Shown here piece by piece: positions 663-16,207 of a stretch of 64,000 nt of DNA. The notes beneath the pieces are model-generated. The model worked only from the letters and a program-made list of their open reading frames with translations, ran no database searches and was not told the origin of the DNA. Origin of the DNA: a virus. A program made the translations under genes and the position numbers. How positions within the stretch are numbered: position 1 is the first letter of the stretch; every line of letters starts with the position of its first letter. The stretch lies in the IMG/VR virus record IMGVR_UViG_3300027798_006580. One strand, 5' to 3'.

Positions 663-985
663 TAATGGGATTTTTTAGTTGGAAGTGTGCCAAATCTGAA
701 AAACCAGTGATGGCAGAAGTTGCAGTACAAGGAACTCCTTGGAGTTTTGCCAGCGATGTTATTGTACTGTTTAAAAATGGCGATCGTATCAGCGGCACCT
801 ATGATGGTTATGGTCGAGTCGATGGTTTCGAACTAATTGATCGCCCAGAAGAATCTTGGCGCATGGTCATAGAACGTTATTACAACGGAGAAGCATTCAA
901 AGAATTGTCACAGAATAAATATGATCAAGGACAGGGATTCTTTTATAGTGACGAAGATTTAGAAAAAGAATTTAGTATTTCATAA
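659..985 (+). CDS. hypothetical phage protein
   Basis: ORF coupled to the previous gene; MGFFSWKCAKS...GTYDGYGRV. Confidence 0.65.
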   Translation: MIMGFFSWKCAKSEKPVMAEVAVQGTPWSFASDVIVLFKNGDRISGTYDGYGRVDGFELIDRPEESWRMVIERYYNGEAFKELSQNKYDQGQGFFYSDEDLEKEFSIS

Positions 986-7752: not shown

Positions 7753-8147
7753 AAATCGGAACAAGTCTGGGCAAGTGTGTTAAAAGTATACTTGCCGGAG
7801 AAGTCAATGAAGAAGATGTATTGTTCGTTGTCAGCAATACAAACTGCCCTACTATAGAAACATTAATGAATGTCATCGAACAATACTACTATGAACATCA
7901 AGGTAGTGGTAGAAGAGCTGCCTATGATATGAGCGCCTACAGCTTGGCCGATGCCTGTGCCGTTGCTCAACGTTTGTTTGAAAGCGGCAAGCTACATCAG
8001 CCTAGAGCAGTTGTCAAGGGCATGTATAGTAATGCTCATAGTTTGCAAGACACTTGGTATGACATTGTACCTAGTCCTGTGTCAGATAATGAAAGTGTGC
8101 AGTCGGCGTGGAATCACTACACAATGATCAAAAGTCTTGCGGCATGA
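7749..8147 (+). CDS. hypothetical phage protein
   Basis: MKIGTSLGKCVKSIL...GKLHQPR. Confidence 0.7.
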   Translation: MKIGTSLGKCVKSILAGEVNEEDVLFVVSNTNCPTIETLMNVIEQYYYEHQGSGRRAAYDMSAYSLADACAVAQRLFESGKLHQPRAVVKGMYSNAHSLQDTWYDIVPSPVSDNESVQSAWNHYTMIKSLAA

Positions 8148-8758
8148 TTAACTTATTAGGTGAACTGCCCCAGCAACCAGTTATTGCTGTCAGCGGCGGT
8201 GTTGACAGCATGGCTGTGGCAGACTTTATTAGCCGTAGTAGAGAAATTAAATGTGCGTTCTTTCATCACGGCACACCGGCAAGTCAACTAGGATTTGAAT
8301 TAGTATCGCAATATTGTGTGCATCGTAAATGGCCCTTGGCATTGGGACGTATTAGTAGCCCTAAAGTTAAGATAGAAAGCCTAGAAGAGTTTTATCGCAA
8401 TCAACGCTATAGTTGGTTAGATACACTAGGCCAAGGTGTTATTACAGCACATCATTTAGATGATTGTGTAGAAACTTATCTTTGGAGTATGATGCATGGA
8501 ACTGCTAAAATAATTCCTTATCGTAGAAATAAAGTTGTTAGACCTTTTTTACTTACACCTAAAGAGGAACTAATTGACTGGGCTAATCGTAATCAAGTAC
8601 CTTGGGTCAATGATGAAAGCAACAAGGATACAAAATTCATGCGTAATTATGTTCGTCATGAACTCGTGCCACATGCTGTTCATGTCAATCCTGGCTTGGC
8701 AAAAGTTGTAGCAAGGAAAGTAAAAGAAATTTATGAAAGCATTGACACAAATATATAA
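8144..8758 (+). CDS. tilS: tRNA(Ile)-lysidine synthetase, short form
   Basis: PP-loop AVSGGVDS, TAHHLDDCVET, VVRPFL, DESN...RNYVRH; adjacent to an Ile2-type CAT tRNA. Confidence 0.9.
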   Translation: MINLLGELPQQPVIAVSGGVDSMAVADFISRSREIKCAFFHHGTPASQLGFELVSQYCVHRKWPLALGRISSPKVKIESLEEFYRNQRYSWLDTLGQGVITAHHLDDCVETYLWSMMHGTAKIIPYRRNKVVRPFLLTPKEELIDWANRNQVPWVNDESNKDTKFMRNYVRHELVPHAVHVNPGLAKVVARKVKEIYESIDTNI

Positions 8759-9105: not shown

Positions 9106-10521
9106 ATGACTATAAAAGGAAATAATTTTAGCAACGAAAGTTTTTGTCCAGAAGTATATAATCAGATTCAGATTGATATGCAAGGCGATTTAAGAGTTTG
9201 CTGTTTGTCTTCTGACGGCGGCCTAACCAGAGAGGCCAACGGAACTCCAATGAATGTAAAAACACATTCAATCATCACGGCAATGAACAGCGAAATACAC
9301 AAACAACACAGGTTAGATTTAAGTAATAACATTAAACCTCAACGATGTAGTAATTGCTATAATTGGGAAAATTACAGCAATGATACGAGTCGTCGTAAAA
9401 AGTTTATCAGATTATCTCAAAATAAACTTGACTATGTCAAAGCCGGTGAAGCATTTGATGTAACAAACGATGATGGCTCCGTTGATGTCGACACTACTAA
9501 GTTAATTAATTTAGATATAAGATTTGGTAATCTGTGTAACCTCAAGTGCATTATGTGTGATCCAGGAAATAGTAGTCTGTGGTATGAAGACTGGGATCTG
9601 CTGTCTAGAAAATTTTCAAAAACTGAAGCCAGCGGACGATCAGTTAAATTTCAATTGGGTGGAATAGATCCAGTCACTGGAAATACTCAGTACTGGAAAG
9701 ATAAAACTAAATTTTATTCTCTTGAAAAGAATCAGTTAGGCAAATTGAAATTGCAAAATGAAGAAAACTGGTGGGAAACTGAATCGTGGAAAAATCAGTT
9801 TAAAAAAATTGCGCCCCAGTTACAGCATATTTACTTTACAGGCGGAGAGCCCTTGCTGGTACCAGCAATGGAAGAACACTTAACTTATCTAATTGAAAAC
9901 GATTTTGCTAAAAATATTATGCTGTGTTACGACACAAACTTGACAGTTGTCAATTCAAACATAATTAACAAATGGAAATTTTTTAAAGAAGTTGAATTGA
10001 GGGTCAGCGTCGACGACACTGGTGACCGCTATAATGTGGTTCGAAATCCTGGAAATTTTGACAAGTTATATGATAACATAACTCGAATTCAAGAAGCCAA
10101 CATAAAAATTAAATACATAAGCATAGTTTGTCACTTGGCCAATGTTTATGGTGTAATTCGCGTTGCAAAGTTAGCAAAACAGATAGGTGCTTCGATGTCA
10201 TTGAGATTTGTAACTAGACCGGGATGGATGAATGTGTCGAATTTACCTAATTCTGCTAAAGAAGAAGTAATTTCAGTGCTTACTAAATTTTTAGAATCCG
10301 AAGAATGTGAATCTATCCGAGGATATGAAAATTTCGTTCAACAACAAATAAAGCATTTTCGTGACAACCCAACAACATCTACACCAAACACGGAATCAAA
10401 TTTGGAAACTTTTGTGCAAGTAATGAATCTAATGGATCAGTCTAGAAATCTAAACTGGAAACATACATTGTCTGATATTGCAGAACTTTTAAAGAAACAT
10501 GTGCCGGGATTGGACATATAA
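9106..10521 (+). CDS. radical SAM protein with N-terminal SPASM/twitch-like Cys cluster
   Basis: CNLKCIMC, FTGGEP; N-terminal FCP...VCC...CSNC. Confidence 0.9.
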   Translation: MTIKGNNFSNESFCPEVYNQIQIDMQGDLRVCCLSSDGGLTREANGTPMNVKTHSIITAMNSEIHKQHRLDLSNNIKPQRCSNCYNWENYSNDTSRRKKFIRLSQNKLDYVKAGEAFDVTNDDGSVDVDTTKLINLDIRFGNLCNLKCIMCDPGNSSLWYEDWDLLSRKFSKTEASGRSVKFQLGGIDPVTGNTQYWKDKTKFYSLEKNQLGKLKLQNEENWWETESWKNQFKKIAPQLQHIYFTGGEPLLVPAMEEHLTYLIENDFAKNIMLCYDTNLTVVNSNIINKWKFFKEVELRVSVDDTGDRYNVVRNPGNFDKLYDNITRIQEANIKIKYISIVCHLANVYGVIRVAKLAKQIGASMSLRFVTRPGWMNVSNLPNSAKEEVISVLTKFLESEECESIRGYENFVQQQIKHFRDNPTTSTPNTESNLETFVQVMNLMDQSRNLNWKHTLSDIAELLKKHVPGLDI

Positions 10522-10657: not shown

Positions 10658-10687
10658 AAATTAGTTTTTATGTTTACTCAAAAGTAA

Positions 10688-10716
10688 TTGACATAAAAGA
10701 TAAATAAATGTATAAT
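10688..10716 (+). promoter_or_regulatory. sigma70-type promoter upstream of attenuator
   Basis: TTGACA-N17-TATAAT. Confidence 0.9.
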
Positions 10717-10765
10717 ATACACATACGCTAAAGAAAGCGTTAAGAAAGAAATTTTAGGAAAAGAT

Positions 10766-10891
10766 ATGCAAACGATTGTGAATCATAAACATTTTAATAC
10801 ATCCAAGCAGATGGGCTTAGTGCCGTCTATTTGGTTTATTAGCTATGATGATTCACAAGAGCGTATCGGGGTCCTGGAGACCAAAGTGTAA
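10766..10891 (+). CDS. putative 41-aa attenuator leader peptide
   Basis: SD agga; MQTIVNHKHFNTSKQMGLVPSIWFISYDDSQERIGVLETKV*; 3' codons carry the antiterminator arm. Confidence 0.6.
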   Translation: MQTIVNHKHFNTSKQMGLVPSIWFISYDDSQERIGVLETKV

Positions 10892-10916
10892 TAAGATTAC
10901 ATTTTAACTTCCAAGG

Positions 10917-10950
10917 ACCCTAGGCTTAAAAACCCTAGGGTTTTTTGTTT
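10917..10950 (+). terminator. intrinsic terminator (conditional)
   Basis: ACCCTAGG-N9-CCTAGGGT followed by TTTTTGTTT. Confidence 0.85.
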
Positions 10951-10963
10951 GCGAAAAGGAATT

Positions 10964-11128
10964 ATGACAGACGTAGATATTAAGAAACAAAAAGAAGCTG
11001 AGTGGATTCGACAGCATACGTTAACTCGAGAAGAAACTAAACAGTTGATTCTTAACAAATTTAAACGTGCTGAAGTCATGCACTTAGCTTTGAAAAAGCG
11101 GGAGATGTTTGTCAGCAAGCATCGTTGA
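10964..11128 (+). CDS. small basic protein directly after the attenuator (not in ORF track)
   Basis: SD aagga; MTDVDIKKQKEAEWIRQH...KHR*. Confidence 0.55.
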   Translation: MTDVDIKKQKEAEWIRQHTLTREETKQLILNKFKRAEVMHLALKKREMFVSKHR

Positions 11129-11252
11129 TCGCAGAGTGTGTAATAAGAGCAGAAATGCCCAGGAAACGAGGTCCTGACATCGCACTATAAACATTGATGT
11201 AAACGGGCGGCGACTAGGATGGAATCCCTTGTGTGGGACTAAAAATTAGATC

Positions 11253-11315
11253 GTATTAAAGCATATTACTAAATTAAGGATGGTCCACTACATTGGCCTT
11301 AGTATGCTTTAATAC
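11253..11315 (+). ncRNA. long-stem cassette RNA 1
   Basis: 15-bp stem gtattaaagcatatt/agtatgctttaatac, 33-nt loop. Confidence 0.55.
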
Positions 11316-11340
11316 ACACATTCCAAAGAGTGTGTTTAAA

Positions 11341-11934
11341 TTATTCTTCGGGATATGTTACTGTAATATTAGTATAATCGGTTCTATAATGGTGCCCGTG
11401 AAACTTATAATGCATGTGAGACCAGTTATATGGTTTTGTGGCATCAAATGGCTTTCCTATAGATAATGTTATTGGAGCAATCAGTTGACCCGAAGCTTCG
11501 TCAATTTGAATATACTTTTTTAAAGTATCCCAAGCTGACATTGCATGAATCTTGAAACTACAGCAGAAGCCAGTTAAATATCCTTGTTCAATTGCTAGCA
11601 TGCCTAGTTTAGTTTGTAACCTGCCAATTTGCATCATTGAGTGCATATCGTTATTTCTTTTTGGCGTACACAAGATTAATATAGGTGCTATTACCTGAGT
11701 ATTAGTTTTCCATGCAAACTTAGGTAATTCATATTCGTGATTAGCACTTGAATGAATTAATTTTATCTCTGATTCGTCGGTAATAACAAAACTGTTTATA
11801 TCTAACTTTTCGTGAGAAATAAAGTCATCGTGTGTGTTTTTTATTAAATTCATAAATTCACCGTCAAGCTGATTGTGAACATCAAAGGATCGTTGACATT
11901 TTTTAAATGTATCTTGTTTAATAAAATTATACAT
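11341..11934 (-). CDS. nitroreductase-like protein
   Basis: KCQRSFD N-terminus; LAIEQGYLTGFCCSF; ITLSIGKP. Confidence 0.55.
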   Translation of the reverse strand: MYNFIKQDTFKKCQRSFDVHNQLDGEFMNLIKNTHDDFISHEKLDINSFVITDESEIKLIHSSANHEYELPKFAWKTNTQVIAPILILCTPKRNNDMHSMMQIGRLQTKLGMLAIEQGYLTGFCCSFKIHAMSAWDTLKKYIQIDEASGQLIAPITLSIGKPFDATKPYNWSHMHYKFHGHHYRTDYTNITVTYPEE

Positions 11935-12256
11935 TGATTATGAACCTCGCATTAATTTCATCGTCGACGACAAAAATTTCTTTAGAATAATTAAGTTTTT
12001 TATCAGTTAAGTAGTACTCTATAGAACCTATTGCAATGCCAGTGGCGTGCCATTTTTCTATTAATTTTTGATAGTCTTCTTGATAGTTAGGGAATGGATT
12101 TACCACTCGATCTCCAAAAAAATCTAAAGTAGATGATATCTCTACTTTAATTGTAGAATTTGATATTGGAGATATGTTAGCACGAAAATATGTTTTTAAA
12201 AAACGAGCAGGGCTCCTTTTAAATATTTCGTTAAGTTCGGTGAATATCTCATTCAT
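11927..12256 (-). CDS. hypothetical protein
   Basis: ORF overlapping the nitroreductase-like start. Confidence 0.55.
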   Translation of the reverse strand: MNEIFTELNEIFKRSPARFLKTYFRANISPISNSTIKVEISSTLDFFGDRVVNPFPNYQEDYQKLIEKWHATGIAIGSIEYYLTDKKLNYSKEIFVVDDEINARFIINV

Positions 12257-12341: not shown

Positions 12342-12426
12342 GGAGATGAAGCATCAATGGTGATGCAGTGGACTGTAAATCCGCCGCCTTAGGGCACGAC
12401 TGGTTCGATCCCAGTAATCTCCACCA
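12342..12426 (+). tRNA. tRNA-Tyr (GTA)
   Basis: cloverleaf with variable arm, CCA. Confidence 0.9.
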
Positions 12427-12432
12427 AATTTA

Positions 12433-12507
12433 GGTGCGTTCATATAACGGTTATTATCTCGGATTGTCTATCCGAAGACGGGAGTTCGACTCTCCCACGC
12501 ATCGCCA
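12433..12507 (+). tRNA. tRNA-Asp (GTC)
   Basis: tcgga-TT-GTC-TA-tccga, CCA. Confidence 0.9.
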
Positions 12508-12510
12508 AGT

Positions 12511-12729
12511 TTTGTAAGTGTCAGCAAGTGAAGTCACGCTGTTCAGTATTCTTCGAAGGTACTGTCTAGTAAAAGGTTGCGGGTTCGATGCCCGACTGAT
12601 CGCCTTCGTTGGTAATCGGTATACATTATGGCGTATCAGCTGGATGAATCCCAAGTGACGTACCGACTCCCGTCCGGACTAGTATAATCGGGTGAATGGT
12701 GCTGATAACGTGGTAGCACTACTTACAAA
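12511..12729 (+). ncRNA. candidate ~220-nt structured RNA with T-loop
   Basis: closing stem tttgtaagt/acttacaaa and tcagca/tgctga; cggg-TTCGATG-cccg. Confidence 0.55.
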
Positions 12730-12737
12730 TTCAATTC

Positions 12738-12811
12738 GTATCCATAGTGTAATGGCAGCATCGCGGTCTCCAAAACCGTCAGTCTAGGTTCGAGTCCTAG
12801 TGGGTACGCCA
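12738..12811 (+). tRNA. tRNA-Trp (CCA)
   Basis: cloverleaf, CCA end. Confidence 0.95.
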
Positions 12812-12844
12812 AATAAGTAATGCCAGTGTACTAAATAATAGACT

Positions 12845-14095
12845 ATGTCAAAAACCAAATTCTCTCAAACTGTTATATGTCCAAATCCATGGACTGCAAT
12901 GTATTTTCATATCAACTCTCCAAGTCCGTGCCATATCATAAGAAACGGTCTCATGAACATGACCATGGAAGAGTATATAAACAGCGAGTGGTTAGTAGAC
13001 ATTAAACAAAAAATGATTAATGGCATACGCCCAAAAGAATGCGAAAATTGCGAAACGAAAGAAGGATTAGGTCTCAAAAGTACCAGGGGTGCTTCTTGGC
13101 GTTACTGGAACATAGGTGAAGAGCCCTATCTAGAAGATCAACCATGGTTTGACGATATAACTGTTGATACTCCCACAAAGCCTAAACGAATAGAATTGAG
13201 ATTTAGTAATTTGTGCAATATGAAATGCAGAATGTGTGACGAAACATCGAGTTCTGAAATTGCAAAAGAAAAACAAAAATACAATTTAGCCAGTAATGGT
13301 ATTCATAATCCCGATAATATCTTTTTCGAAGACACTGACGACAGCGTGTTAAAAATTACTGATGATAATATTCAAGGTTTAAAGAATATCGAATTACTAA
13401 GTGAATTGCGTAAAGTATGTTTTACTGGCGGGGAACCATTTCTAATCAAAGGTTATTATGATTATCTTGATTTTTTAATTGAACACAAATTTAACGAGCA
13501 AGTTGAATTAGAATTATTTACAAATACAAGTGTATATAATAAACTGTTTGTAGATCGTTTAATGAAATTCCCTAAAGTAGAATTTACCATGAGCATCGAC
13601 GGCGTTGGTAAAACAGCTGAATACATTAGACACGGTACAAAGTGGGACACAATTGAAAAAAATGTATTAACATTCAATTCTATGCCAAAGCCAATATTAT
13701 GCTCGATAAATGTTGCAATTTCAGCTTATGTTTTGTTAGATGTATCTAATCTGGCATTATTTTTGATGAGACTATATCGTGAAAATAATAACATATTGAT
13801 TAAATGTTATACTATATTAGTGCAAAGTCTTCGTTTTACATCTGCACCTGCACATCTCAAAGAACGTATGTTACGTGAAATTGATTTAGCAGTAGATATA
13901 TTAGACTGTCCTAATTTTGCAATATTTAGAAATGAATTGCTGAATTTACGTCCGAAGGTGGTGAAGATGTTGAATGTTTCTAGGCCGCTCGATGAGAAGA
14001 ACTTTATAGAGTTTACTCAAACATACGATAAGATTAGAAACGAATCGTTCGAGAATACATTTGGTATCCCGTTAATTTTAGATAAGGAAAAATGA
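12845..14095 (+). CDS. radical SAM protein with N-terminal SPASM/twitch-like cluster
   Basis: CNMKCRMC, FTGGEP, MSIDG; paralog of 9106. Confidence 0.9.
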   Translation: MSKTKFSQTVICPNPWTAMYFHINSPSPCHIIRNGLMNMTMEEYINSEWLVDIKQKMINGIRPKECENCETKEGLGLKSTRGASWRYWNIGEEPYLEDQPWFDDITVDTPTKPKRIELRFSNLCNMKCRMCDETSSSEIAKEKQKYNLASNGIHNPDNIFFEDTDDSVLKITDDNIQGLKNIELLSELRKVCFTGGEPFLIKGYYDYLDFLIEHKFNEQVELELFTNTSVYNKLFVDRLMKFPKVEFTMSIDGVGKTAEYIRHGTKWDTIEKNVLTFNSMPKPILCSINVAISAYVLLDVSNLALFLMRLYRENNNILIKCYTILVQSLRFTSAPAHLKERMLREIDLAVDILDCPNFAIFRNELLNLRPKVVKMLNVSRPLDEKNFIEFTQTYDKIRNESFENTFGIPLILDKEK

Positions 14096-14206
14096 CATGA
14101 AACGTTCGGCGAAACGATAGTGTCATCTTTGACCCGTATGGTCATGGATGGCACGTAAAAGAAAATTTTTACAAATCCATCCACGCTCTTGGAGCATGGA
14201 TCATAT

Positions 14207-14282
14207 GGGACTATAGCTCAGCCGGTAGAGCAGCGGACTTTTAATCCGTTGGTCGCGAGTTCGAATCTCGCTGGTCCCACCA
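14207..14282 (+). tRNA. tRNA-Lys (TTT)
   Basis: cloverleaf, CCA. Confidence 0.95.
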
Positions 14283-14358
14283 TATAGAAACACATTTTTT
14301 AACTAGGCATGCCTCTGCAAGGGTTTAACAGCAGTTTTAAGTGTGTTTCTATATGGTG
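14278..14358 (+). ncRNA. long-stem cassette RNA between tRNA-Lys and tRNA-Met
   Basis: 20-bp stem caccatatagaaacacattt/aagtgtgtttctatatggtg, 41-nt loop. Confidence 0.6.
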
Positions 14359-14429
14359 ATATAGCACAGTGGTAGTGCATCCGCTTCATACGCGGCCGGT
14401 CGTTAGTTCAAATCTAACTATCACCACCA
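14355..14429 (+). tRNA. tRNA-Met (CAT, elongator)
   Basis: loop TT-CAT-AC, paired 1:72, CCA. Confidence 0.85.
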
Positions 14430-14430
14430 T

Positions 14431-14506
14431 GGAGTTGTTAGTGTAACGGTTAACACCACGGATTGTGATTCCGTTAATACGGGTTCGATTCCCGTACGAC
14501 TCCCCA
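14431..14506 (+). tRNA. tRNA-His (GTG)
   Basis: G-1:C73, cloverleaf, CCA. Confidence 0.95.
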
Positions 14507-14515
14507 ATCAAATTT

Positions 14516-14591
14516 GCCGCAGTAGCTCCAATGGTAGAGCAGAGGATTGAAAATTCTTGTGTTACTGGTTCAAGTCCAGTTTGTGGCACCA
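14516..14591 (+). tRNA. tRNA-Phe (GAA)
   Basis: cloverleaf, CCA. Confidence 0.9.
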
Positions 14592-14597
14592 AAATTT

Positions 14598-14672
14598 ACT
14601 CGATTCGTCTATCGGTTAGGACATCTGGTTTTCAACCAGGTAAGAGCGGTTCAACTCCGCTATCGAGTACCA
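14598..14672 (+). tRNA. tRNA-Glu (TTC)
   Basis: cloverleaf, CCA. Confidence 0.9.
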
Positions 14673-14676
14673 TTTT

Positions 14677-14753
14677 AGCCTCATAGCTCAGTTGGTTAGA
14701 GCAATGTGTTGATAACGCATAGGTCCTCTGTTCGAGTCAGAGTGAGGCTACCA
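14677..14753 (+). tRNA. tRNA-Ile (GAT)
   Basis: cloverleaf, CCA. Confidence 0.95.
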
Positions 14754-14909
14754 AGTTTCGGGATAGACGATGGGTTCGAGTCCCTGTCAATCTAGTCACA
14801 GTGGGGTTAACTGTGATGACACTATAGTATGATTGATGGGTGTATAAACTTGCCTATACGAGACACGCTAGTCTATAGTACAAAGACTAGTTCCTGAAAA
14901 CCTTTTTAT

Positions 14910-14983
14910 TCCCGGGTAGTGTAGTGGCAGCACAACAGACTTTGACTCTGCTAGTATAGGTTCGATTCCTATCCCGGGTGCCA
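14910..14983 (+). tRNA. tRNA-Gln (TTG)
   Basis: cloverleaf, unpaired 1:72, G73, CCA. Confidence 0.9.
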
Positions 14984-14990
14984 AAAAAAT

Positions 14991-15066
14991 GCGGCTGTAG
15001 CTCAGTTGGTAGAGCATCACGTTGCCAACGTGAATGTCACCGGTTCGAACCCGGTTAGCCGCTCCA
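14991..15066 (+). tRNA. tRNA-Gly (GCC)
   Basis: cloverleaf, CCA. Confidence 0.95.
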
Positions 15067-15072
15067 AATAAA

Positions 15073-15160
15073 GGAAGTGTGGCAGAGTGGTCTATTGCAA
15101 CAGTCTTGAAAACTGTCGGGTCGAAAGGCTCCGTGAGTTCGAATCTCACCGCTTCCGCCA
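15073..15160 (+). tRNA. tRNA-Ser (TGA)
   Basis: long variable arm, CCA. Confidence 0.95.
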
Positions 15161-15196
15161 AAAATAAAAAAAGCATATTTGACCTTTAAATACACG

Positions 15197-16126
15197 ATGA
15201 AACAACCTATTAAAATTATTCCCAAAAAACCAGTTATAAATATATACTGGAAGCTCACTGATTTTTGTAACTTTAAATGCAATTACTGTCCTAGTTTCTT
15301 GCACAGCGGAAAGTATGCCAATGGAAAATTACCAGGCTTTCCAATTTATTCTGACATTATAATTTTTATGGACAAGCTGAAAGCTGTGGCAGCTTCCGGA
15401 ACGCATTTAAATCTTCAGTTTGGTGGTGGCGAACCGACATTGCATCCTAATTTCCTTGACATTATAAAATATATGAGTGTAGAAAATGTTTATCTAGGTG
15501 TCACTACCAACGGATCTAGAAGTGATGAATGGTGGAGCGAAGCTTTGCCATTTTTAGATAATGTAACAATGTCCCTTCATCCAGAGTTTACAAAGATAGA
15601 TAAAGTAAATAATCTGGCAAAATCTATAGTAGAGTCCGGCACTTCGATATTGTTCAACCTTAGTTGCGATCCTGACAGATGGGATACTGTATTAGAGTTA
15701 TACGACAATATAGATGATTATTTGAAACCAATGGTAACTACAAAAGTTCTAAATTATTTAGAAACAACTAGAGAAAATTATTCTTATACAGATGAACAAA
15801 CCGCATGGATTAAAAACCACATTGCGAATCCGTCATCATCCCGTGGCTTTATTAACTCAGTGATATATTTCGACGACGGATCAGCTGAAAATTTAGTCCT
15901 GGGTAAAATTACTATCAATAATTGGAATGAATTTAAAGGTTGGAAATGTAAAGTAGCTAGTCAAAGTTTAGTGATTGATTTTAACGGAAAAGTCAATGCC
16001 GGAATATGTAATGCTAAATCTCTGGGTCACATAACTGATTTTAATTTAGATACTAACTATCTAGCCTGTCCATTTAAATATTGTACTTGTCCGACTGATA
16101 TTAGGTCTGAAAAATATAAAATTTAA
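15197..16126 (+). CDS. radical SAM protein with C-terminal SPASM/twitch-like domain
   Basis: CNFKCNYC, GGGEPTLHP, VTTNGS; C-terminal WKC...GIC...CPFKYCTC. Confidence 0.9.
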   Translation: MKQPIKIIPKKPVINIYWKLTDFCNFKCNYCPSFLHSGKYANGKLPGFPIYSDIIIFMDKLKAVAASGTHLNLQFGGGEPTLHPNFLDIIKYMSVENVYLGVTTNGSRSDEWWSEALPFLDNVTMSLHPEFTKIDKVNNLAKSIVESGTSILFNLSCDPDRWDTVLELYDNIDDYLKPMVTTKVLNYLETTRENYSYTDEQTAWIKNHIANPSSSRGFINSVIYFDDGSAENLVLGKITINNWNEFKGWKCKVASQSLVIDFNGKVNAGICNAKSLGHITDFNLDTNYLACPFKYCTCPTDIRSEKYKI

Positions 16127-16130
16127 CCCG

Positions 16131-16207
16131 CGGTCCTTAACTCAATTGGATAGAGTGCCAGTCTTCGAAACTGGAAGTTGGGAGTTCGAATCTCTCAGGG
16201 CCGGCCA
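16131..16207 (+). tRNA. tRNA-Arg (TCG)
   Basis: ccagt-CT-TCG-AA-actgg, CCA. Confidence 0.9.

Follow-up and report, generated by a model that had tools for sequence, protein, structure and literature searches.

What decides whether a transcript that starts at a perfect promoter ahead of a phage transfer RNA (tRNA) array ends after about 260 nucleotides (nt) or runs on toward the tRNAs? The question was raised by positions 10688 to 10950 of a 64,000-nt stretch (here called the window; all positions refer to it) that is part of the 77-kb IMG/VR virus record IMGVR_UViG_3300027798_006580. A first-pass annotation, made from the sequence alone, had proposed that a short leader open reading frame (ORF) and an overlapping terminator form a ribosome-coupled attenuator at this site. 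That reading was supported computationally by an open leader, a stop codon inside a hairpin, mutually exclusive helices, and a tRNA array downstream. With a probability of roughly 0.6, we conclude that the module is a ribosome-mediated transcription attenuator that senses the overall rate of translation and gates a small gene (ORF54), a structured RNA, and tRNAs. The anatomy of the module, its conservation and covariation, comparative evidence for translation of the leader, a thermodynamic switch, and a downstream stretch lacking consensus promoters were established computationally.

The perfect promoter, the Shine-Dalgarno (SD) sequence with its 41-codon ORF, and the U-tailed terminator were located as first described. 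The pairing that had been noticed between GGGTCCTGGA (10869-10878) and TCCAAGGACCC (10910-10920), with A10913 bulged, proved to be the lower part of a larger hairpin, H3. The elements of the module are as follows.

10688-10716, plus strand: sigma70-type promoter TTGACA-17-TATAAT, matching the consensus at 12 of 12 positions
10725-10740, plus strand: 5'-terminal stem-loop ACGCU/AGCGU, present in the minimum-free-energy fold
10756-10759, plus strand: SD sequence AGGA, 6 nt 5' of the leader AUG
10766-10891, plus strand: leader ORF, 41 codons and a UAA stop (10889-10891)
10868-10921, plus strand: hairpin H3, the antiterminator, about 22 bp in 54 nt, predicted free energy of −25.7 kcal/mol
10868-10879/10909-10921, plus strand: lower stem of H3, 12 bp, with A10913 bulged
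10883-10892/10896-10905, plus strand: upper stem of H3, beyond a 3x3 internal loop, 10 bp, with a triloop at 10893-10895
10917-10950, plus strand: intrinsic terminator, with stem 10917-10924/10934-10941, a 9-nt loop (10925-10933), and a U tract at 10942-10950 (U6GU3)

Protein searches with the 41-amino-acid product gave few matches; the contigs of these matches, together with a DNA-pattern scan of metagenomes and one viral contig, supplied clade A (15 distinct modules). The more diverged clades B, C, and D were reached through homologues of ORF54, which fall into 69 clusters. The homologous loci number 27, with about 21 distinct sequences in four diverged clades. Apart from two exceptions (L011 and L055, described below), they share one order: consensus promoter, leader ORF, stop-enclosing hairpin, overlapping terminator, U tract, SD sequence, and ORF54. 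The module heads a tRNA array in every clade, as the annotation had placed it, and the array follows wherever enough flank is present. None of the 27 loci retains the terminator while lacking the complementary arm 5' of it, the case that had been named as refuting the proposal.

The leader and the hairpin that encloses its stop codon

Conservation of the leader ORF was examined in related phages, and the frame was uninterrupted wherever the module was complete (about 21 distinct homologues, four clades). Leader lengths were 40 to 45 codons in clade A, 46 or 47 in clade B, 47 in clade C, and 37 or 38 in clade D. Within clade A, at least five insertion or deletion events fell inside the leader ORF, each of them a multiple of three (chance probability, ∼0.004); those in the 5' untranslated region (UTR) of the same clade were of 1, 4, or 8 to 10 nt. 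This comparative evidence indicates that the leader is translated.

The conserved frame with its in-frame insertions and deletions also argues against reading 10724-10950 as a structured noncoding RNA in which the ORF is fortuitous, a reading that we consider highly improbable. The full transcript (10724-10950) folds at −77 kcal/mol (z = −8.2), as such an RNA might. Besides the 5' hairpin, H3, and the terminator, however, the predicted helices were not kept in relatives. A long hairpin inside the ORF (10776-10858), a helix between the start-codon region and 10861-10867, and a helix between the SD region and the 3' arm of the terminator were each rejected as conserved features on the grounds that substitutions in relatives break the pairs, as in the within-ORF and start-codon helices, or that the partner segment is replaced.

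The ratio of nonsynonymous to synonymous polymorphism (pN/pS) was 0.62 for the leader, compared with 0.32 for ORF54, and variable columns were spread nearly evenly over the codon positions. Between clades the peptide has almost completely diverged, keeping the initiator Met, one Trp, and (in clades A to C) a Lys-Gln pair; the C-terminal residues are conserved within clade A. A frame that is strictly kept and a product that is weakly constrained are as expected if the act of translation is selected. This suggests that the reading of the leader, rather than its product, is under selection. The leader had no Pfam or PHROG match and nothing usable in the ESM Atlas, and a match to a 1067-amino-acid immunoglobulin-repeat protein (E = 6e-10) was rejected as a weak 25-residue resemblance multiplied by the repeats.

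The same data bear on a plainer account, in which the locus is an ordinary early cassette that encodes a functional 41-amino-acid protein and is expressed from its own strong promoter; the terminator would be partly efficient, H3 would serve mRNA stability or RNase III-type processing, and the overlap would have no regulatory role. The retained Trp, Lys-Gln pair, and clade A C terminus, together with a pN/pS value below 1, fit this account, as do the many other units of a promoter and a small gene in the genome. The almost complete divergence of the peptide between clades speaks against it, and on the evidence given here and below we judge it unlikely.

The leader had been described as using 18 of the 20 amino acids, with no Ala or Cys, and as unusual in this respect. 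The composition was confirmed, but it is not unusual: 18 or more kinds of residue occur in 23% of 41-residue windows from this phage's own proteins. No run of any single amino acid is present in the leader. Of its 41 codons, 24 match the tRNAs encoded downstream, compared with a background of 47%, and this difference was not significant (p = 0.09).

Folding of H3 was well beyond chance (z = −4.8), and none of 200 shuffled sequences folded as well. Its 5' half is built from the last seven leader codons and the stop, and the UAA lies in the upper stem. In all clades the stop codon is located within H3 and 21 to 25 nt 5' of the terminator arm (25 nt in the window), and this placement holds even where the C terminus and the interior of H3 differ. 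Clade B has a rebuilt interior, with a new 8-bp upper stem and the stop codon in its loop. In clade D the hairpin is rebuilt as well, and a different 5' segment, GUCCAGG, pairs with 6 or 7 nt of the terminator arm. An ordinary cassette leaves unexplained both the constant location of the stop codon inside the hairpin and the inclusion of the terminator 5' arm in the hairpin 3' arm in four clades with rebuilt interiors.

Early transcripts of phage T7 carry RNase III hairpins between cistrons, each of about two helical turns and interrupted by an internal loop. H3, with ∼22 bp and an internal loop, resembles these sites in shape, and only in shape, and in its intercistronic location in a phage early transcript. 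As an RNase III-type site it would separate a small mRNA from a tRNA precursor, as the cassette account supposes. It differs from the T7 hairpins in enclosing the upstream stop codon and in overlapping a terminator arm.

Within clade A, H3 is almost invariant, internal-loop bases included. Among the 15 clade A relatives, 4 of 55 paired columns of H3 and the terminator were variable, compared with 37 of 54 columns in leader codons 17 to 34 (Fisher p = 1e-11), and the remaining variable sites of the H3/terminator block fall in the two loops. We read this pattern as strong purifying selection, not covariation. Since the conservation exceeds the needs of pairing, it could also reflect a switch operated by a protein or an RNA: ORF54 or a phage or host factor might bind H3, for autoregulation or timing, or H3 might be a cis-acting processive antitermination RNA. 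ORF54 would suit such a role as a conserved, basic, predicted helical hairpin that always follows the module. The interior of H3 is replaced in clades B and D with the competition geometry kept, which argues against a specific binding surface, and strict conservation of the leader frame would go unexplained. A search of Rfam 15 with 10717-11340 (E ≤ 1) gave no meaningful match to any family, antitermination RNAs included. A factor-operated switch therefore seems to us improbable. The sole Rfam match reaching into this region, to the eukaryotic small nucleolar RNA SNORA53 (10667-10725, 20 bits, over the promoter), was dismissed as spurious.

Two helices that share one arm

The terminator has an 8-bp, G+C-rich stem (hairpin free energy, −12.1 kcal/mol); it was missed by an automatic terminator scan, which allowed loops of up to 8 nt. 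ACCCU (10917-10921) is common to its 5' arm and the 3' arm of H3. The stem sequences across clades are ACCCUAGG/CCUAGGGU (clade A), ACCCUGGA/UCCAGGGU (clades B and D), and ACCCCAGG/CCUGGGGU (clade C). In 10 distinct sequences, all 80 of the 80 cells were paired and three of the eight pairs showed compensatory double changes; every slid control was at most 70% paired. The segment of the 5' arm outside H3 co-varies freely, and most of the shared segment is frozen. The shared base 10921 is U with G or A at 10868 and A at 10937, or C with G at both (U to C in clade C). A base that changes together with both of its partners gives the pattern expected of mutually exclusive helices, and the ordinary cassette does not explain it.

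Cross-clade MAFFT alignments of H3 were out of register, and the closing-stem pairs were counted by position instead. Pairs 2 to 7 were invariant (15 distinct sequences, clades A to C), and pair 1 was G.U, A-U, or G-C. Covariation of both helices had been named as a check on the proposal; it was observed in the terminator and at 10921, and was absent from pairs 2 to 7 of H3. The claim that the two helices are mutually exclusive is upheld by the shared arm, the terminator covariation, and the co-variation of 10921 with both partners.

The competition was then examined by folding prediction. The core states are isoenergetic (full H3, −25.7 kcal/mol; truncated H3 with the full terminator, −25.7 kcal/mol), and the balance in the window is tipped by extra pairs that extend H3; the energy differences between states do not exceed the uncertainty of the folding model. 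In nascent window RNA up to 10941, the predicted pair probability of the terminator was ∼0.01. It was 0.97 to 0.99 when 10868-10903 was kept single-stranded to represent a ribosome at the stop codon, and it was back to ∼0.01 when the modeled ribosome was further upstream. Over all loci, the predicted probability in free RNA ranged from 0.001 to 0.9 (median, ∼0.03), compared with 0.95 to 0.97 with a ribosome at the stop. By clade, the values for free RNA versus a ribosome at the stop were 0.003 to 0.48 versus 0.97 (A), 0.001 to 0.09 versus 0.97 (B), 0.53 to 0.73 versus 0.96 (C), and 0.05 and 0.90 versus 0.97 (D). In these models all clades retain the competition between the helices, although its predicted winner is not always the antiterminator. 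The predicted geometry would fit a choice of helix by ribosome position.

As a control, 27 terminator-like hairpins in the window were compared. The attenuator terminator had the lowest predicted probability (0.00), 22 of the 27 had values of at least 0.8, and four others fell below 0.8. By strength and form it is the strongest and most canonical of the 27 and the sole canonical strong terminator on the plus strand.

Genes behind the terminator and the proposed mechanism

The following features lie downstream of the terminator.

10964-11128, plus strand: ORF54, encoding a basic 54-amino-acid protein, the first gene that would be gated; SD sequence AAGGA
11129-11345, plus strand: structured noncoding RNA of ∼215 nt, right after the ORF54 stop
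12342-16207, plus strand: tRNA array (Tyr, Asp, Trp, Lys, Met, His, Phe, Glu, Ile, Gln, Gly, Ser, Arg), lacking its own consensus promoter
12342-12423, plus strand: tRNA-Tyr, anticodon GUA (from the sequence), with a long variable arm; Rfam score of 36 bits, missed by ARAGORN

ORF54 starts 20 nt past the terminator stem, with no consensus promoter in between. Plus-strand promoters that match the consensus at 11 or more of 12 positions occur in the window at 8742, 10534, and 10688; none follows between the terminator and 17893, a stretch with 13 tRNAs. In clades A to C, no consensus promoter was found after the terminator for ∼1.7 to >4.6 kb, across 6 to about 20 tRNAs in the available DNA. ORF54 and (in clades A to C) tRNAs that lack their own promoter behind the sole canonical terminator are a further arrangement that an ordinary cassette leaves unexplained. 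Relatives of all four clades have the tRNA array directly after the structured RNA; the DNA available for them includes between 6 and about 20 genes of the array. In the window, two minus-strand ORFs (197 and 109 amino acids; no Pfam or PHROG family) lie between the structured RNA and the tRNAs, at 11341-12256. Only this phage and its nearest relative, L002, have them, other relatives proceeding straight to tRNAs; they therefore look like a recent insertion, which also displaced a tRNA-Ile(UAU).

On the attenuator reading, host RNA polymerase would start at 10688-10716 and transcribe the 41-codon leader. A ribosome close behind the polymerase would, at the last codons or the stop, hold the 5' arm of H3 single-stranded, and the terminator would fold. 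The ribosome would not hinder this folding, since it must halt at the stop, 25 nt short of the terminator arm. Transcription would then end at about 10946 to 10950. With a ribosome absent, late, or stalled (not past about codon 30), H3 would form first, sequester ACCCU, and mask the terminator. The polymerase would then continue into ORF54 and the ∼215-nt structured RNA and, in the ancestral arrangement, would go on directly to the tRNAs. The leader would serve as a "race track" of ∼120 nt that reports the general rate of translation initiation and elongation. A general sensor, rather than one of a single amino acid, is proposed because the leader has neither an amino acid run nor a significant match to the downstream tRNAs. 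We infer that termination depends on the ribosome, and likewise the direction of regulation in vivo and its physiological trigger; tRNA cleavage or starvation as that trigger would be pure conjecture.

More tentatively, and at somewhat less than even odds, the module may act as a feedback governor of phage tRNA supply, with slow decoding opening ORF54, the structured RNA, and a dozen or more tRNAs. The leader would then gauge how well ribosomes in the infected cell initiate on and read phage-type codons, and decoding might lag through a mismatch in codon usage, starvation, or host anticodon nucleases. Demand-driven control of tRNA genes of this kind did not turn up in the literature searched.

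Several observations weigh against attenuation by the ribosome. The conserved Trp, the Lys-Gln pair of clades A to C, the clade A C terminus, and a pN/pS value below 1 allow a functional peptide. Pairs 2 to 7 of H3 and pairs 1 to 4 of the terminator are invariant and hence uninformative as to covariation. In clade C and in L071 of clade D, the predicted balance leans to the terminator even without a ribosome, as the cassette account would have it. The predicted energy gap between the states in the window is only ∼3.6 kcal/mol, and strand exchange should be fast; the terminator may therefore be masked only in part. Upstream of H3, neither a conserved anti-antiterminator or pause hairpin nor any other conserved partner for the 5' arm of H3 was found, and readthrough is therefore the outcome predicted in the absence of translation. 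As to the tRNAs, clade D has a 12/12 promoter immediately before the first tRNA, readthrough in the window would have to run antisense through the ORFs at 11341-12256, and phage-specific promoters, invisible to a sigma70 scan, could feed the array.

In enterobacterial amino acid operons, leader-peptide attenuators of the trpL, hisL, leuL, and pheL type (summarized in PMC4191407) form the terminator when a ribosome halted at the leader stop covers the antiterminator's 5' strand. The phage module is like these leaders in its promoter, SD sequence, short leader, alternative hairpins sharing one strand, and U tract. The trp/his-type geometry that had been recognized at the outset holds for this sharing between terminator and antiterminator; it does not extend to a regulatory codon run, which is lacking along with any significant match to the tRNA set, or to a conserved 1:2 pause hairpin, which was not found. 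The predicted default also differs, being readthrough rather than superattenuation, and the phage leader is two to three times longer and has tRNAs, not biosynthetic enzymes, as its output.

A leader that senses translation efficiency without an amino acid run is bmrB of the Bacillus subtilis bmrBCD operon (53 codons), in which translation slowed by antibiotics or rare codons favors the antiterminator (PMC4191407). Both leaders are long (53 codons there, 37 to 47 here) and lack a single-amino-acid run, and both have the terminator and antiterminator at the leader 3' end. In both, efficient translation favors termination and slowed translation favors readthrough, an outcome that is experimental for bmrB and predicted for the phage module. 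No sequence relationship was seen. The bmrB terminator lies inside the coding region, whereas the phage terminator begins 25 nt after the stop, and bmrB gates a drug efflux transporter in a bacterium, whereas the phage module would gate a small protein, a structured RNA, and tRNAs.

The reasons for tRNA arrays in phages, and the timing and dosage of these tRNAs, are debated, and compensation for codon usage and escape from tRNA-targeting defenses are among the proposals (PMC10264068). In the published literature searched, leader-peptide attenuation was not found described for phage tRNA genes. If the attenuator reading is true, this phage makes tRNAs on demand and links tRNA supply to ribosome performance. 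The ∼260-nt module would offer a compact, testable cis-element for transcription-translation coupling in infection, and it points to two unstudied products, ORF54 and the ∼215-nt structured RNA, as coregulated with tRNAs.

Setting of the module and its variants

The promoter hexamers are invariant in the 15 clade A relatives and present in clades B to D, and a conserved A/T-rich stretch lies upstream, from about 10660. The 5' stem-loop, for which a role in mRNA stability is putative, is kept with altered sequence in clade B (ACGUU/AACGU) and clade C (GCAGCA/UGCUGU). Three different UTR variants were found, and each retains AGGA or AAGGA. In clade D (L069 and L071, ∼1770 to 1810 of these loci), the leader AUG is ∼1 nt past the predicted transcription start and has no SD sequence; translation of the leader from a leaderless mRNA is therefore expected. 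Over the window as a whole, the early promoter set is unusually consensus-like. Eight perfect (12/12) promoters occur on the plus strand (1004, 2005, 5467, 8742, 10688, 34439, 34532, and 47609), and sigma70 promoters that agree with the consensus at 11 or more of the 12 positions number 21 on the plus strand and 3 on the minus strand.

ORF54 is predicted to fold as a two-helix hairpin (predicted local distance difference test score, 89.8). It had no Pfam or PHROG family, nothing usable in the ESM Atlas, and no fold match in the Protein Data Bank (Foldseek search with the model). The consensus fold of the structured RNA has 41 pairs, 17 of which show compensatory changes (10 sequences, clades A to C), and no Rfam match was found at E ≤ 1. 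Its 5' closing strand, AGUGUG, begins 7 nt past the ORF54 stop. The 3' partner, CACACAU, could alternatively pair with a downstream AGUGUGU that is followed by U-rich sequence, and a second translation-linked switch is therefore conceivable here.

The window holds 26 tRNA genes detected by ARAGORN, plus the tRNA-Tyr at 12342-12423 detected by Rfam only; at the matching position, relatives carry tRNA-Ile(UAU) and/or tRNA-Tyr. Two radical SAM genes are interspersed in the array at 12342-16207. Three such genes lie among the tRNAs of the window (9106-10521, 12845-14095, and 15179-16126), one with an N-terminal SPASM-like domain, and a gene for a TilS-like PP-loop ATPase (8108-8758) is located upstream of the first tRNAs.

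Close relatives were found in lake metagenomes, one of them on a 360-kb contig, and on this basis the lineage is one of jumbo freshwater phages. When the region was compared with the GenBank phage collection by blastn, the sole match was to a tRNA-Thr, and the phages of the same collection gave no match to a large protein encoded in the window. A 16-mer scan of viral contigs gave mostly chance matches, the genuine ones being L016 and an already known contig only.

Two loci depart from the common order. In L055 (∼700 to 770, minus strand of the locus), an inserted gene for an HNH-type homing endonuclease immediately follows the terminator stem; the insertion breaks up the U tract (UUUCGUUUUUU) and displaces ORF54. 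L011 (135-700) is a recombinant: unrelated DNA has been joined to a segment comprising the promoter, the 5' hairpin, the SD sequence, and leader codons 1 to 26. The fusion creates an ORF of 86 amino acids, and H3 and the terminator are absent. The 5' half of the module thus also travels as a portable expression cassette.

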